Source: a phage
Sequence record: PX421306.1
Direction: 5' to 3' (one strand)
Length of the DNA stretch: 64,000 bases
The position numbers and the translations under genes were made by a program. This document shows, in pieces, positions 8,333 to 13,073 of the stretch. Positions within the stretch are counted from its first letter, which is position 1. The number at the start of each line of letters is the position of its first letter. The notes beneath the pieces were generated by a model. The model was not told where the DNA came from and did not search any database. It saw only the letters and a list, made by a program, of their open reading frames with translations.

Positions 8333-8749
8333 TTAAATGTAAATATTTTTGCCGTAATACTTGTACCAGTGTGGCTTCATTAAAATTTTTTCATCGAGTC
8401 GTTGTTGACTCAATTTAATAGCTGATTTGCATGGATTATAATCATTTTTCCATTCTGCTGGAATATCACTGATGTCAGGAACTTCAGTATCTTTTATACT
8501 AAACCCACGTTTTAAGCATTCCGTTATAATGTCTGATTGACGCTTTCGCAAAAATTCTAACTTATCGTAAAAGAACGTAACATGACCAGAACCTAAAATA
8601 AACTCGGAAGATATTTTAAAATCTTTAACCCGCTTACCATTTGCCACGTGTTTACGAACTATACCAAAAACACGTGGCAATTCACGGTATTCTGCGATTA
8701 AATGCTGATCAGCAAGTTCAGATACTAAAGTCAAATTAATACGAGTCAT
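8333..8749 (-). CDS. denV: endonuclease V (pyrimidine dimer DNA glycosylase)
   Basis: 138 aa; [17 protein letters not shown]... closely matches T4 endonuclease V as recalled. Confidence 0.92.
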
Positions 8750-8808: not shown

Positions 8809-9339
<531 letters not shown>

Positions 9340-9795
9340 TTAAAAGAGGCTGTTCATTATTCGGTAAAGTGAAGGACCCATCACATATTGCCACTGAGTA
9401 CGAGGAATAAGGGCAAAAGCATCCATCTCTGGAATCATAACACCATCTTTATTTTCAAAATAAGACTCGCAATGGCAATTTCTAAACATCTCATGCTCTA
9501 CTGGAATCGTATAATAAAATAACTGTAAGTCTTTATTACTAGAATATTTAAATACACCTAGGTCTTCTAGAAGGTCTGGACTATAATTGCTAAAACCGGT
9601 CTCTTCTAAACATTCTCTTCGTGCTGCATCTAGTGCGCTTAAATCAGAATTTTCTACGCGCCCCCTTGGAATATCCCAGCGATGTGCCATCATTCCAGGC
9701 TTACGAGAACCAGTAACTCGTCCCATAAATAAATCTTTATCTTCTGTCATAAAGATAATACCAGCTGATAATGTTTTCATTTTAATTTCCTGCAT
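9340..9795 (-). CDS. nudE: Nudix hydrolase
   Basis: 151 aa; Nudix box GRVENSDLSALDAARRECLEETGF; position downstream partner of e as in T4. Confidence 0.85.
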   Translation of the reverse strand: MQEIKMKTLSAGIIFMTEDKDLFMGRVTGSRKPGMMAHRWDIPRGRVENSDLSALDAARRECLEETGFSNYSPDLLEDLGVFKYSSNKDLQLFYYTIPVEHEMFRNCHCESYFENKDGVMIPEMDAFALIPRTQWQYVMGPSLYRIMNSLF

Positions 9796-10265
9796 TCGGT
9801 GATAAAATTATTTAAATTTTGAGTATATTTCTTTTCATCAAAAATCTTTTGCTGCCTACGTAACCGCCATGGCATTTCAATGAACACGCACCATATTCCT
9901 GATAGTACTGCTGCTGTAAAAATATTAACAAGTATAATTAAAAGAATCCAATCTTCCGTTCTGCCTACTGGACTTTCTCCAAAGAAGCAAAATACAAATG
10001 ATGTCACAGGAAAACTAATAATATACCACAGAATAACCTTCTTATCTGTGAACCAATCAGCGTTCGTTAACTTAGCGCGACCATTTCGAATACACACGAA
10101 TTTATCATCTGTTACAGTAGATGGCTTAACTGCTTGATATCCCATTCTAAACTCCCTAATCAGCAAATTTTTCATATCTTCGGAACAGCCATTCCAGTCA
10201 ACTCTATCGACTGAAATGCCATCGTCCCCATCATCTAAATCATACCAGCGAGTTTTTAAAATCAT
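9777..10265 (-). CDS. small membrane protein (2 predicted TM helices)
   Basis: 162 aa; hydrophobic segments VILWYIISFPVTSFVFCFFG and WILLIILVNIFTAAVLSGIWCVFI; C-terminal ...ECRKLK tail. Confidence 0.55.
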   Translation of the reverse strand: MILKTRWYDLDDGDDGISVDRVDWNGCSEDMKNLLIREFRMGYQAVKPSTVTDDKFVCIRNGRAKLTNADWFTDKKVILWYIISFPVTSFVFCFFGESPVGRTEDWILLIILVNIFTAAVLSGIWCVFIEMPWRLRRQQKIFDEKKYTQNLNNFITECRKLK

Positions 10266-10516
10266 TTAATTTTCCTACAATCACTCACAAACTCTTCCAT
10301 TGATTCTTTTTCAATATAAGACATGTAGTTATTATATTCCTTTAATTGTATTTTGTAATCCTTTTTTCTTTGCCAATTTATTTTAAAATTATCATAATGA
10401 AAATATAACATGGTACCAAAGAATGAAAATAATGAAATCGCTATAGTATAACGAAGTTCACTCCAAACCTCTGTTATAATTACTGTGCCGTCGATGTTTA
10501 AAATAATACAGTCCAA
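10262..10516 (-). CDS. small membrane protein
   Basis: 84 aa; one hydrophobic helix; C-terminal ...DCRKIK tail similar to neighbour. Confidence 0.5.
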   Translation of the reverse strand: MDCIILNIDGTVIITEVWSELRYTIAISLFSFFGTMLYFHYDNFKINWQRKKDYKIQLKEYNNYMSYIEKESMEEFVSDCRKIK

Positions 10517-10606
10517 TTAACAATCCAATAAGACTACCAGCAAGAGCTGCAAATACTGACACGGCAAGAATTAATAGTGCCTCAGGAAACGAATATTTGA
10601 CTTTAT

Positions 10607-11020
10607 TTAGTTTTGGCTTTTGCATCGTGATTCCTTAACAAATTTCATAATTTCATTAAATTCATGCATATCAAGTTTAAGCTGGTGTTCCTTTTTAATC
10701 TTTTTACACTGAGCTTTCCATTCGCGTACGCGTTTACGATAATGTCTTCCTTGATACCAGTATCCTACCCAATTTACAGGTACTAATAAAAGTGGAACTA
10801 TTAATGGAAGAATTAGCATTAACACAAGTATTTCGCCAGAATCAATATCAGTCATAACATCTAAAACACCTCCAATAATCAATAGAATTACAAATGATAT
10901 GAGTATAACAGGACCTATTAATACATCAGTAGAAATTAGCTGACGCTTTGGTTCATACTTCACAGGTTTACTTGGAAGGTATAGTGATGGCTTTGACATA
11001 TTCTCTACATTCCTTAACAA
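10607..11020 (-). CDS. small membrane protein (2 predicted TM helices)
   Basis: 137 aa (true start may be internal ATG at 10999); hydrophobic helices; C-terminal ...ESRCKSQN. Confidence 0.5.
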   Translation of the reverse strand: MLRNVENMSKPSLYLPSKPVKYEPKRQLISTDVLIGPVILISFVILLIIGGVLDVMTDIDSGEILVLMLILPLIVPLLLVPVNWVGYWYQGRHYRKRVREWKAQCKKIKKEHQLKLDMHEFNEIMKFVKESRCKSQN

Positions 11021-11573
11021 ATTTTTCTAATAATAAATCGCTTTCAAAATTAGGATTTTCCACGAATTTATCAAAAAGATCATCAACGATAGTTAAGATA
11101 TTCTTTTTACTAAGAATACGCTTATTTTCATATTTTGTTTCAGAGTCAACTATAAGAGTAAAGAAATATTTCTTTCCCTGAAATTTTACCGTAGTATCAA
11201 TATAGAACAAATTTGACTTTTGTAAATTACGTTTAAACCATGCGTCACTTAAACTGTAAACGCCAAGATAATCATAATCGTCATTTAAATAACAAACTGT
11301 CCATTCAGGAGAAATGAAATCAGTAAATTCAACATCAAAATCACACGTCAATGAATGAATTGATTCAATACTTTTAATGAGTATTCCAGGACGTATTAAA
11401 GACTTTTTACCTTTATAAAATCCAGAAAGACTTTCATCAGTTTCATATGAAGACCCCCAATAGTAATTACGTCCTTCTGCCATACGTTTAAGAGCATTTA
11501 GTAATTGGTCTGGAACATCAATCTGTCTTTGGAACTCTTCAAACATTGAATTGAAATCACTTTGCATTTTCAT
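10968..11573 (-). CDS. hypothetical protein
   Basis: 201-aa ORF; no recognisable motif; overlaps downstream gene. Confidence 0.55.
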   Translation of the reverse strand: MKMQSDFNSMFEEFQRQIDVPDQLLNALKRMAEGRNYYWGSSYETDESLSGFYKGKKSLIRPGILIKSIESIHSLTCDFDVEFTDFISPEWTVCYLNDDYDYLGVYSLSDAWFKRNLQKSNLFYIDTTVKFQGKKYFFTLIVDSETKYENKRILSKKNILTIVDDLFDKFVENPNFESDLLLEKFVKECREYVKAITIPSK

Positions 11574-11594
11574 TCCTATTTACTCCAAGTAATA

Positions 11595-11620
11595 GGGGCC
11601 GAAGCCCCTTATCATTATTT
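11595..11620 (-). terminator. possible intrinsic terminator
   Basis: GGGGCCGAAGCCCC tetraloop hairpin in intergenic gap; flanking T-richness moderate. Confidence 0.4.
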
Positions 11621-12208
11621 CAGAGAATTAATGTATTCCTGAACATCGGCAGAGGTAGTTTCAACCCCAGAAATATTGCCGTTAAAAGTTTCAACTCGAG
11701 CAAGGGTATCTTCAATATCAACCTTAGTCAGTGCTGCAATTTCAACTACATCATCGGCAGTACTAATTCCAAGGGCATTTGCCGCACGAGTTTCACGGAT
11801 ATATTCCAATTTAACTGCAAGTTCTTGGCGAGCATCATCTAACTCAACTACTTTCTTGGCGATTTCAATTCGCATTTCAGCATAACCGTCAGCTTTAGTA
11901 GTCAACTGCTCAGCTGTTCGACGATATAGCAAACCGAGTTTAGCATGCATTGTTACATCTTGACCTTCGGAAAGAAGTTTACGAATTTCACGCTCTTTTG
12001 ATTCGGCCTGTCGATTCTTTTCGATAACAAGTTCACGAATACGTTTTTCTTCATTAATAGATTTAATAGAAGCAGTTTTTAGATCTTTAATTTTATCAAG
12101 TAATTTTGCTGCTGCAGCAGTATACTGTTCTTCGACAGATAGATTTTTAGCCATAGCAGAACCAAGTTTAGTGCGAATAAACTCAACAATTTTCTTCAGT
12201 GTGTTCAT
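11615..12208 (-). CDS. coiled-coil protein, possibly PspA/IM30-like
   Basis: 197 aa, almost entirely helical heptad-like K/E/R-rich sequence; early-type promoter upstream, hairpin downstream. Confidence 0.55.
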
Positions 12209-12244: not shown

Positions 12245-12280
12245 GGAAGTATTATATCTTGTTCTCCAAGGGATGTAAAC
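12245..12280 (-). promoter_or_regulatory. early-type promoter
   Basis: Minus-strand GTTTAC (12275-12280) and TATAAT (12251-12256), 18-nt spacer; upstream of coiled-coil gene. Confidence 0.5.
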
Positions 12281-12704: not shown

Positions 12705-12740
12705 TAGATAATATCACGTTTCCAATAGATTGTAAACTTA
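12705..12740 (-). promoter_or_regulatory. early-type promoter
   Basis: Minus-strand GTTTAC (12732-12737) and TATTAT (12708-12713). Confidence 0.45.
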
Positions 12741-13073
12741 TTCTTCGTCTAGTTCATCGATAAAGGCGTCGATGGCCTCGACAACGGCATCATTGATAGC
12801 CAATAAAATAAAATCATCGTCAGTACCTTTAGAAGATTCTAAAGCATTGATATATGCTTGGTTGGCGAGTTCCCAAGCCTTTTTAAAATAAGGAGCTTCA
12901 TCATCAGGACAAATATCCCGCACACCTTCAAAGATACGATTGGCATAATCTAACACCCATTGTACAGGCATGTTTTGAGAACGTTCATTAAACTCTTTAA
13001 AGTCCTTAGATTCAAAAAGCTCTTCAGGATAATCATTTCTATTACAAAAATCTTTGCTAAAGTTACGTTTCAT
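12738..13073 (-). CDS. hypothetical acidic protein
   Basis: 111-aa ORF, acidic C-terminus; promoter-like motif upstream. Confidence 0.55.
   Translation of the reverse strand: MKRNFSKDFCNRNDYPEELFESKDFKEFNERSQNMPVQWVLDYANRIFEGVRDICPDDEAPYFKKAWELANQAYINALESSKGTDDDFILLAINDAVVEAIDAFIDELDEE

Follow-up and report, generated by a model that had tools for sequence, protein, structure and literature searches.

The genes e.2 to e.6 lie next to each other on the minus strand of a Tequatrovirus (T4-like) genome, of which a stretch of 64,000 nucleotides (record PX421306.1; hereafter, the window) was analyzed. Four of these genes—e.2, e.3, e.4, and e.5—encode proteins whose C-terminal tails resemble each other far beyond chance. 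The tails share a helix motif, [LIM]-x-x-F-[IV]-x-[ED]-[C/S/V/I]-[RK], which is very likely a genuine conserved protein motif on a paralogous C-terminal module. With high confidence, the same tail nucleotides are used both as ribosome-binding site and as recombination junction. The explanation that best accounts for the whole, held with middling confidence, is that the shared tail helix belongs to the membrane anchors and adaptors of a phage Psp-like module headed by e.6, a probable relative of PspA and Vipp1.

The e.2 gene (9777–10265; all window features given here lie on the minus strand) encodes a 162-residue inner-membrane protein with a soluble N-terminal domain of 75 residues, two transmembrane (TM) helices (77–95 and 106–124), and a basic cytoplasmic tail, NNFITECRKLK-stop. 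The e.3 gene (10262–10625) is disrupted in the window into a 55-residue open reading frame (ORF; 10458–10625) with TM1 and an 84-residue ORF (10262–10516) with TM2 and the cytoplasmic tail; intact e.3 has two TM helices. The e.4 gene (10607–10999) encodes 130 residues from its ATG, or 137 from an upstream TTG, and features a basic N terminus and a TM hairpin (31–49/57–75). The e.5 gene (10968–11573) encodes a 201-residue soluble protein with no TM helix, ending in LLEKFVKECREYVKAITIPSK-stop. All TM helices were assigned by a simple Kyte–Doolittle hydropathy scan.

The tails quoted in the first-pass annotation—FITECRKLK, FVSDCRKIK, and FVKESRCKSQN, together with KFVKECREYVK at the end of the upstream 201-residue ORF, e.5—proved exact. 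The motif reads FITECR in e.2 (9789–9806; TTT ATC ACC GAA TGC AGG), FVSDCR in e.3 (10274–10291; TTT GTG AGT GAT TGT AGG), FVKESR in e.4 (10625–10642; TTT GTT AAG GAA TCA CGA), and FVKECR in e.5 (11004–11021; TTT GTT AAG GAA TGT AGA), the last just 5′ of the e.4 ATG (10999–10997). Across the 28,365 residues of all six-frame window ORFs of at least 50 residues, the pattern F[IV]x[ED][CS]R has four matches, and all four fall within the last 25 residues of these adjacent genes. Upon ranking of the C-terminal 20-mers of 87 genes (3,741 pairs), e.2–e.3 comes first, e.3–e.5 third, e.2–e.5 fifth, and e.4–e.5 tenth; the pairs e.2–e.4 (351st) and e.3–e.4 (249th) are unremarkable, e.4 being linked to the other tails mainly via e.5 and a 16-nucleotide exact DNA repeat. 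Motif count and ranks support the C-terminal similarity that had been proposed, the two low-ranking pairs excepted. The earlier label of a Cys-Arg-Lys tail captures a real shared tail, the defining residues of which are F-[IV]-x-x-[C/V/S/I]-[R/K]. The second-best tail pair of the window consists of two other genes (735–938 and 12738–13073), which have acidic C-terminal segments, NAVEALDMFLDEIID and NDAVVEAIDAFIDELDEE, and may be paralogues.

As judged by hhalign with three-lineage profiles, e.3 and e.4 match with a probability of 76.5% (E-value 2.2e-5) over 39 columns—the whole cytoplasmic domain—and e.2 and e.3 at 56.8% over 15 columns of the tail. The remaining pairs are weak (e.5–e.3, 21%; e.5–e.2, 10%; e.5–e.4, 1%; e.2–e.4, 0.5%). 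In all six comparisons, the sole match is tail to tail and in one register. A first round with shallow profiles of Tequatrovirus only had given probabilities of 3–11%, one result being contaminated by the chimera P0051 and disregarded; pairwise BLASTP among e.2, e.3, and e.4 is marginal (E-values 0.006–0.14). Homology of the bodies of e.2–e.5—the N-terminal and TM parts—was not detectable by pairwise BLASTP or profile comparison. This points to a shared C-terminal module that was probably duplicated and sits on diverged or unrelated bodies; of the paralogous family suggested earlier, the C-terminal modules are retained as probable paralogues, and the bodies are not. Scans of e.2–e.5 against Pfam, NCBIfam, and PADLOC returned nothing meaningful, and e.5, searched singly and as a nine-lineage profile, has no match in PDB or Pfam.

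At least nine Straboviridae lineages carry the motif 3′ of e.6, both in the protein at the e.5 position and in small membrane proteins, of which there are one to four. For five further genera—Jiaodavirus, Winklervirus, Kanagawavirus, Biquartavirus, and Pseudotevenvirus—the gene after e.6 was taken by position and not by motif, and the motif is present in all. Mosigvirus features FIMECREYVKA (e.5), FVKEIRCKSLNS-stop including FVKEIRC (e.4), and FIKECRK-stop (e.3, followed by an unrelated gene); the more distant contig L028 features FIAECREY, FIKEVRNGTA-stop, and a tail with ...TFIK; phage CUA3 features FIKECREY and FIKECKS-stop. The gene after e.6 carries FIKYCRERVQK-stop in Jiaodavirus, FVKMCRTKHTEVNNG-stop including FVKMCRT in Winklervirus, FVDQCRANIK… in Kanagawavirus, FIDYCRRTAPKRD-stop including FIDYCRR in the Aeromonas genus Biquartavirus (with the next gene 85 nucleotides away), and FIHSCKKNV… in Pseudotevenvirus. 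The membrane protein that comes next carries FVKEVRRK-stop in Jiaodavirus, FIKECR-stop in Winklervirus, and FIKNVRRK-stop in Kanagawavirus. Codons vary between the lineages (Arg AGA/AGG/CGA/CGT/CGC; Cys TGT/TGC; Phe TTT/TTC). Nine e.5-position proteins share three invariant columns, two of which are the F and the C of the motif, and the sole BLASTP match between the L028 e.5-position protein and window e.5 is the tail, LNRFIAECREYAKGV against LEKFVKECREYVKAI.

A control covered 175 ORFs, drawn from the window plus seven loci in other genera; coding-strand cluster genes account for 12 of 12 strict and 17 of 18 loose matches. The control also yielded extra paralogues in Klebsiella phage KP179 (AWIRSCRK-stop and LFIAKCRAK-stop) and in CIP9 (KFIKQCRRNQNVS-stop); the two KP179 tails belong to unannotated ORFs of 98 and 102 residues (L032, 4575–4871 and 5881–6189), probably missed family genes. 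When the e.4 profile was run exhaustively as a hidden Markov model against 1.84 billion representatives, just seven matches came back: by sequence, the family is very narrow, although the search did bring up the distant P0197/L028 lineage. From this comparison, the motif is a true protein-level feature and not only a by-product of ribosome-binding sites. The region had been described as variable: only e.2 is truly so, and the module of e.6, an e.5-like protein, and one or more membrane proteins is kept across many Straboviridae genera.

At the DNA level, each of the four tails overlies the Shine–Dalgarno (SD) sequence and the start codon of the next gene. In the e.2 tail (TGC AGG AAA TTA AAA TGA), AGGAAA (9791–9786) is the SD sequence for the second nudE ATG (9780–9778), which forms an ATGA with the e.2 stop codon; in the e.3 tail (TGT AGG AAA ATT AAA TGA), AGGAAA (10276–10271) serves the e.2 ATG (10265–10263), again with an ATGA overlap. 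In the e.4 tail (AAG GAA TCA CGA TGC), AAGGAA is the SD sequence, and the e.3 ATG (10625–10623) straddles the Arg and Cys codons; the e.5 tail (AAG GAA TGT AGA GAA TAT GTC) serves e.4. The "RK" of e.2 and e.3 and the "KE" of e.4 and e.5 arise because the SD sequence of the next gene (AGGAAA/AAGGAA) is read in two frames, and the straddling e.3 start codon dictates the Cys of e.4. The e.3/e.2 and e.2/nudE junctions, with AGGAAA 5 nucleotides upstream, resemble ATGA-type translational coupling; the e.5/e.4 and e.4/e.3 junctions resemble overlapping coupled genes and overlap by 32 and 19 nucleotides. The chain e.5–e.4–e.3–e.2–nudE is presumably translationally coupled, judging from this arrangement. 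Unlike in other ATGA-coupled genes, the upstream peptide over the signal is here conserved and common to several genes. None of the four junctions has a stem-loop. Two further candidates were dropped: a site resembling a RegA translational operator at the junction AAAUUUGUUAAGGAAU, suggested by its resemblance to the consensus from systematic evolution of ligands by exponential enrichment (SELEX), and a minimal start–stop ORF (ATG TAG) in "GAATGT AG", for which there is no evidence of any role.

A 16-nucleotide exact repeat, AAATTTGTTAAGGAAT, is present in the e.4 tail (10630–10645) and in the e.5 tail (11009–11024). In RB32-type phages, the e.3 tail is joined to the nudE start and e.2 is precisely absent, two BLAST segments overlapping by 21 nucleotides at the junction repeat. 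Phage CUA3 lacks e.4, and its e.5 tail (…ECREYAKEVQNGTA-stop) combines two junctions of the related contig L028, e.5/e.4 and e.4/e.3. Chimeric proteins also occur: P0051 joins e.4 (1–31) to e.2 (87–162), and P0198 joins e.3 to e.4. Judged by these sequences, the repeated junctions act as substrates for the precise loss of whole gene cassettes. A search of IMG/VR with the exact 18-nucleotide junction pattern gave 16 loci, among which only T4-like junctions are relevant; three unrelated families also matched, roughly as many as chance predicts, and the search gives no hint of a mobile junction outside the cluster. The nearest known counterparts are the promoter–early stem-loop (PeSL) cassettes of T4-type phages (PMC2839356, PMC4122927), in which short repeats at gene boundaries likewise act as recombination sites and small ORFs are gained and lost in plastic regions. 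PeSLs consist, however, of an intergenic early promoter and a stem-loop between a stop and the next start, whereas the window repeats are overlapping coding sequence: C-terminal codons, SD sequence, and ATG.

The TM hairpins of e.2, e.3, and e.4 have basic flanks and short acidic loops, and the periplasmic loops are about 5–12 residues long. Basic termini and acidic loops would, by the positive-inside rule for membrane-protein orientation, place these proteins in an N-in/C-in topology with cytoplasmic tails, like the soluble e.5. The AlphaFold2 model of e.4 (predicted local distance difference test, 77.6) features TM1 (30–49) and one continuous helix (54–129) that runs from TM2 through the tail to the C terminus. 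Among nine Tequatroviruses, SD sequence and ATG are invariant; the tails have synonymous changes (TGT/TGC, TTT/TTC, GTT/GTG, ACC/ACT, ATT/ATC) with the residues unchanged, and conservation reaches 30–50 residues upstream of the gene overlap. Pooled over three genes, the variable codons of the C-terminal domains are 11 nonsynonymous to 26 synonymous-only versus 70:27 in the TM hairpins (Fisher p = 1e-5). Purifying selection acts on the cytoplasmic C-terminal helices; the TM hairpins evolve almost freely, which fits an anchor role.

The e.6 gene (11615–12208) encodes a 197-residue helical-hairpin protein, is the best conserved of the cluster, and always stands at its head; 1,107 phage records contain it, at identities as low as 25–33%. 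The single-sequence AlphaFold2 model is a confident helical hairpin. In a Foldseek comparison with PDB, the top nine matches are all Vipp1/PspA (E-values 2e-4 to 8e-3), followed by ESCRT-III. A nine-genus e.6 profile searched against PDB sequences gave Vipp1 as all four best matches (E-values 0.0035–0.033), collinear over 1–140 versus 1–142, and the long α-helical hairpin core of e.6 is collinear with PspA/Vipp1 from the N terminus. Among the nine e.6 orthologues, one matches the Pfam family PspA_IM30 (PF04012) with an E-value of 4.6e-4; the N terminus of e.6 looks amphipathic, by eye only. The Vipp1/PspA signal is confined to the fold searches and the nine-genus profile; with phmmer or a six-sequence profile, e.6 had no match in PDB. 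On balance, there is good reason to consider e.6 a divergent PspA/Vipp1 (IM30, ESCRT-III superfamily)-like protein. No description of this likeness was found in the annotation and papers searched; some records label e.6 a "host specificity protein".

In the proposed mechanism, e.2, e.3, and e.4 would be N-in/C-in membrane hairpins whose TM part is little more than an anchor, and their functional part would be the conserved cytoplasmic C-terminal helix ending in the motif. The motif would act as a common docking or oligomerization element through which the membrane proteins and soluble e.5 bind one partner; the most plausible partner would be the adjacent, always co-located e.6 as a PspA/Vipp1-like membrane-protecting protein. 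The cluster would then form a phage-encoded Psp/Lia-like module on the inner membrane early in infection, in parallel to LiaI, which anchors LiaH, and to PspB/PspC, which engage PspA. PspA homologues with small membrane anchors encoded alongside have been described (PMC9239133). Docking of the tails to e.6 or another common partner is a tentative proposal. More speculative still is the full picture, in which T4-type phages would carry their own "phage shock" system: e.6, present in more than 1,100 sequenced phages, the soluble adaptor e.5, and the variable inner-membrane anchors e.4, e.3, and e.2 with their paralogues would all plug in via F-[IV]-x-x-C-R, their common C-terminal helix for docking. 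Such a module would stabilize or remodel the host inner membrane during infection; its tail codons would in addition keep translation coupled and let anchors be gained or lost in frame.

The likeness to Psp/Lia systems (PspA–PspB/PspC of Escherichia coli; LiaH–LiaI of Bacillus subtilis) lies in a PspA/IM30-like hairpin protein whose gene accompanies those of small inner-membrane proteins with cytoplasmic helices, in one promoter-like site 5′ of the whole cluster, and in an expected action at the cytoplasmic face of the inner membrane. The window module differs by being phage-encoded and expressed early in the lytic cycle, by lacking PspF or a LiaRS-type regulator, by a short C-terminal motif common to the partners, which Psp/Lia systems are not known to have, and by an e.6 that stays below family thresholds by sequence. 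Membership of e.2, e.3, and e.4 in the PspB, PspC, or LiaI-LiaF-TM families was not found (Pfam at E-values up to 1; no NCBIfam match); these proteins may work like Psp/Lia partners, which is different from belonging to those families.

Several points weigh against this mechanism. The e.6 model was computed from a single sequence and has low confidence in its C-terminal third; window e.6 has no Pfam PspA match at E-values up to 1 and stays below the PF04012 gathering threshold, and hhalign of e.6 against E. coli PspA was negative with a PspA sequence entered by hand. Neither e.2–e.4 nor e.5 has sequence similarity to PspB, PspC, or LiaI in a Pfam scan at E-values up to 1. The Cys of the motif is not universal, being S, I, or V in e.4-type proteins. 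In T4, RB32, and the window, e.2 and e.3 are often broken or lost, as is e.4 in phage AV110, so that each single member is dispensable. The docking idea draws on synteny, topology, and the selection pattern only. The lineages are all related phages that keep the same gene order, so finding the genes side by side does not count as independent support for a functional link.

Four other explanations were weighed. That the tail similarity is a mere by-product of translational coupling—with SD sequence and ATG forcing R-K, K-E, and Cys (xxA TGy) on a functionless peptide—would account for the position of all four tails over the next SD sequence and ATG, for the invariance of these nucleotides in nine genomes, for the Cys of e.4 (CGA TGC), and for the 16-nucleotide repeat at two junctions; AGGAAAATAAAATGA-type signals are also found at other T4 junctions. 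C-terminal similarity in overlapping phage genes generally requires a check of the underlying DNA before it is interpreted. Such a by-product is nevertheless quite improbable here: the F-[IV] and C/R positions are kept with varied codons in nine lineages, the SD sequence falls on different motif positions (R-K in e.2/e.3, K-E in e.4/e.5) with the peptide register kept, conservation with synonymous changes extends well upstream of the overlap, and the motif makes up two of the three invariant columns of the e.5-like proteins. In L028, KP179, and LC53, moreover, the downstream SD sequence lies outside the motif—in L028, the motif Arg is CGT and the called e.4 start has its SD sequence, AAGGGG, downstream of the motif—and Aeromonas phage avDM7 has no overlapping gene, the next one starting 85 nucleotides away. 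The related idea that the junctions are mainly recombination cassettes, a coding analogue of PeSLs for in-frame shuffling of small genes with the motif kept for modularity, draws on the precise e.2 deletion between two TGYAGGAAAWTWAAATGA junctions in RB32-type phages, the e.5/e.3 fusion junction of CUA3 relative to L028, the chimeric proteins P0051 and P0198, about 60 of 505 matching records with less than 80% query coverage, and the modular shuffling via conserved intergenic cassettes documented in T4-type phages (PMC2839356). Repeats of 16–21 nucleotides need no amino-acid conservation with changed codons across genera, however, and distant genera keep the peptide though their junction DNA is no longer similar; the junctions also lack the promoter and stem-loop that define PeSLs. 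Recombination is more readily viewed as following from the repeats than as the reason for their existence, and this idea is improbable, too.

The first-pass annotation had named these proteins as candidates for superinfection exclusion or interference with membrane-bound host defense. In this view, they would be independent small membrane effectors acting through their TM or periplasmic parts with an incidental tail. Early expression, inner-membrane hairpin topology, the frequent loss or disruption of members typical of accessory genes, and fast-evolving hairpins and loops, as an arms race predicts, all agree with this. Relaxed constraint alone would produce a ratio near 70:27, though, and no arms race is required; the periplasmic loops are very short, and the strongly constrained part is cytoplasmic—the wrong side for a periplasmic mechanism—with the TM parts and loops least constrained. 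The motif of soluble e.5 would also remain unexplained by a TM-based mechanism. Imm and Sp are small early inner-membrane proteins of T-even phages; the window proteins have no sequence similarity to them, and their conserved part is, in contrast, cytoplasmic and common also to a soluble protein. No match of e.2–e.5 to Imm/Sp or to known defense or antidefense families was found in Pfam, PHROGs (unknown or "membrane protein" only), NCBIfam, or PADLOC. Nothing points to such effectors specifically, and we consider them unlikely. Least probable of the four is a functional core formed by the conserved Cys, whose thiols would, in a hetero-oligomer of e.5 with e.3/e.2, build a common metal or redox site or take part in a covalent modification. 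All nine proteins at the e.5 position have this Cys, as does every e.2 tail and every e.3-type tail, and from sequence it would lie on the hydrophobic face of the predicted amphipathic helix; but cysteine-centered chemistry is weakened by the e.4-type tails that lack it, each tail has a single Cys with no CxxC or His partner, and there is no similarity to metal-binding or sulfurtransferase families. Many e.3/e.4 proteins in NCBI records are named "sulfurtransferase" (e.g., P0052, P0110, P0122); no NCBIfam or Pfam models stand behind the name, which looks like a propagated misannotation.

The preferred reading of the tails as docking helices of a Psp-like module would turn five adjacent early genes into one testable unit, the e.2–e.8 region of T4 having been "hypothetical" since genome sequencing. 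If it is true, a PspA/Vipp1-like phage protein would have membrane partners recognized via a six-residue tail, and viruses would join the ESCRT-III/PspA story. Whatever the function, one short sequence is under three constraints—as peptide motif, as ribosome-binding site of the next gene, and as recombination junction that deletes genes in frame—which is relevant to the annotation and engineering of T4-like therapeutic phages. The shared motif, this triple role, and the Straboviridae-wide conservation are not described in the annotation or papers searched; the genes themselves were already on record as T4 hypotheticals and have Pfam and PHROG families.

Of the three ORFs of 162, 84, and 137 residues listed in the first-pass annotation, all are present at the stated coordinates, on the minus strand, and two need correction. 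The 84-residue ORF, which begins with TTG, is the C-terminal part of e.3 and aligns to positions 37–122 of PHROG 2330; the overlooked 55-residue ORF aligns to positions 1–39. As judged by alignment with five other phages, an extra G at 10513–10514 (+1) splits e.3, which is intact elsewhere with 120–124 residues; this is either real pseudogenization or a sequencing error. The 137-residue ORF begins with TTG as well: all orthologues begin at the ATG at 10999, which is probably the start of e.4. The one or two hydrophobic helices assigned to each ORF are found as two each in e.2 and e.4; the 84-residue fragment keeps only the weak second one in the Kyte–Doolittle scan. The e.2 gene is full length in the window; a truncated 102-residue form is present in T4 (L001, 1757–2065) and in about 30 cluster sequences. 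RB32 itself (L003, 1540–1760), in addition to the loss of e.2, has an e.3 whose frame shifts within a poly-A run; in UFV05, e.4 and e.2 are fused (e.4::e.2), and AV110 has a truncated e.4 of 59 residues (L029, 4648–4827).

The interval 9700–11700 matches 505 phage records at 91–98% identity, the best being Salmonella phage Lv5cm (97.8%); to Tequatrovirus genomes, identity across the region is 92–98%. In T4, the orthologues of e.2–e.5 have 80–98% identity and the same order between nudE and e.6. They are the hypotheticals e.2 (P32273), e.3 (P32274), e.4 (P39222; PF26873, Phage_T4_Y06O), and e.5 (P39223; PF26876, Phage_T4_Y06P), which existing annotation keeps as separate families labeled "predicted membrane protein" or "hypothetical"; e.2–e.5 match PHROGs 2203, 2330, 2604, and 2607 and the precomputed Pfam families PF26896, PF26873, and PF26876. 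For T4, early RNA and protein have been detected for all of e.2 to e.6 (PMC9697503, supplementary files 4 and 6), which bears out the expression of the ORFs that the first-pass annotation had presupposed. The genes e.5–e.4–e.3–e.2 are T4-type early genes that read through into nudE. A σ70-type promoter-like site (12251–12279; TTTACA-17-TATAAT, 11/12, a consensus match only) 5′ of e.6 is a candidate early promoter for e.6–e.5–e.4–e.3–e.2–nudE, promoter-like matches in the region being at chance level (20 found versus 15.5 expected). No paper on the function of e.2–e.6 was found in the literature searched. An early-protein screen of AV110 (bioRxiv 10.64898/2026.09.14.751387) names six inhibitory proteins: Gp94, 135, 204, 208, 214, and 263. 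By numbering from protein accessions, e.3, e.5, and e.6 of AV110 would be Gp234, Gp236, and Gp237 and so would fall outside these six.

Downstream of the cluster lie nudE (9340–9795), e (lysozyme; 8809–9303), and denV (8333–8749), all named after the T4 annotation. The nudE gene encodes a Nudix hydrolase and closes the overlapping chain, its ribosome-binding site lying inside the e.2 tail. Two ATGs of nudE lie in frame, at 9795 and 9780; the latter has the AGGAAA SD sequence at the usual spacing and the ATGA overlap, and annotators are divided between 151- and 146-residue forms. On the mRNA strand, a GC-rich hairpin capped by a UUCG loop (11594–11609; GGGGC-UUCG-GCCCC) lies within the 41-nucleotide gap between e.6 and e.5; it may be an attenuator or stabilize the mRNA. 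Beyond e.3, Mosigvirus and several other genera (L004, 2010–2804; L031, 4522–5103; L033, 4829–5394; L035, 4711–5306) carry another tandem family, of small soluble proteins of 65–105 residues, most of which end in G-x-W-[VI]-S-S-S-x-x-C-stop with a conserved C-terminal Cys.

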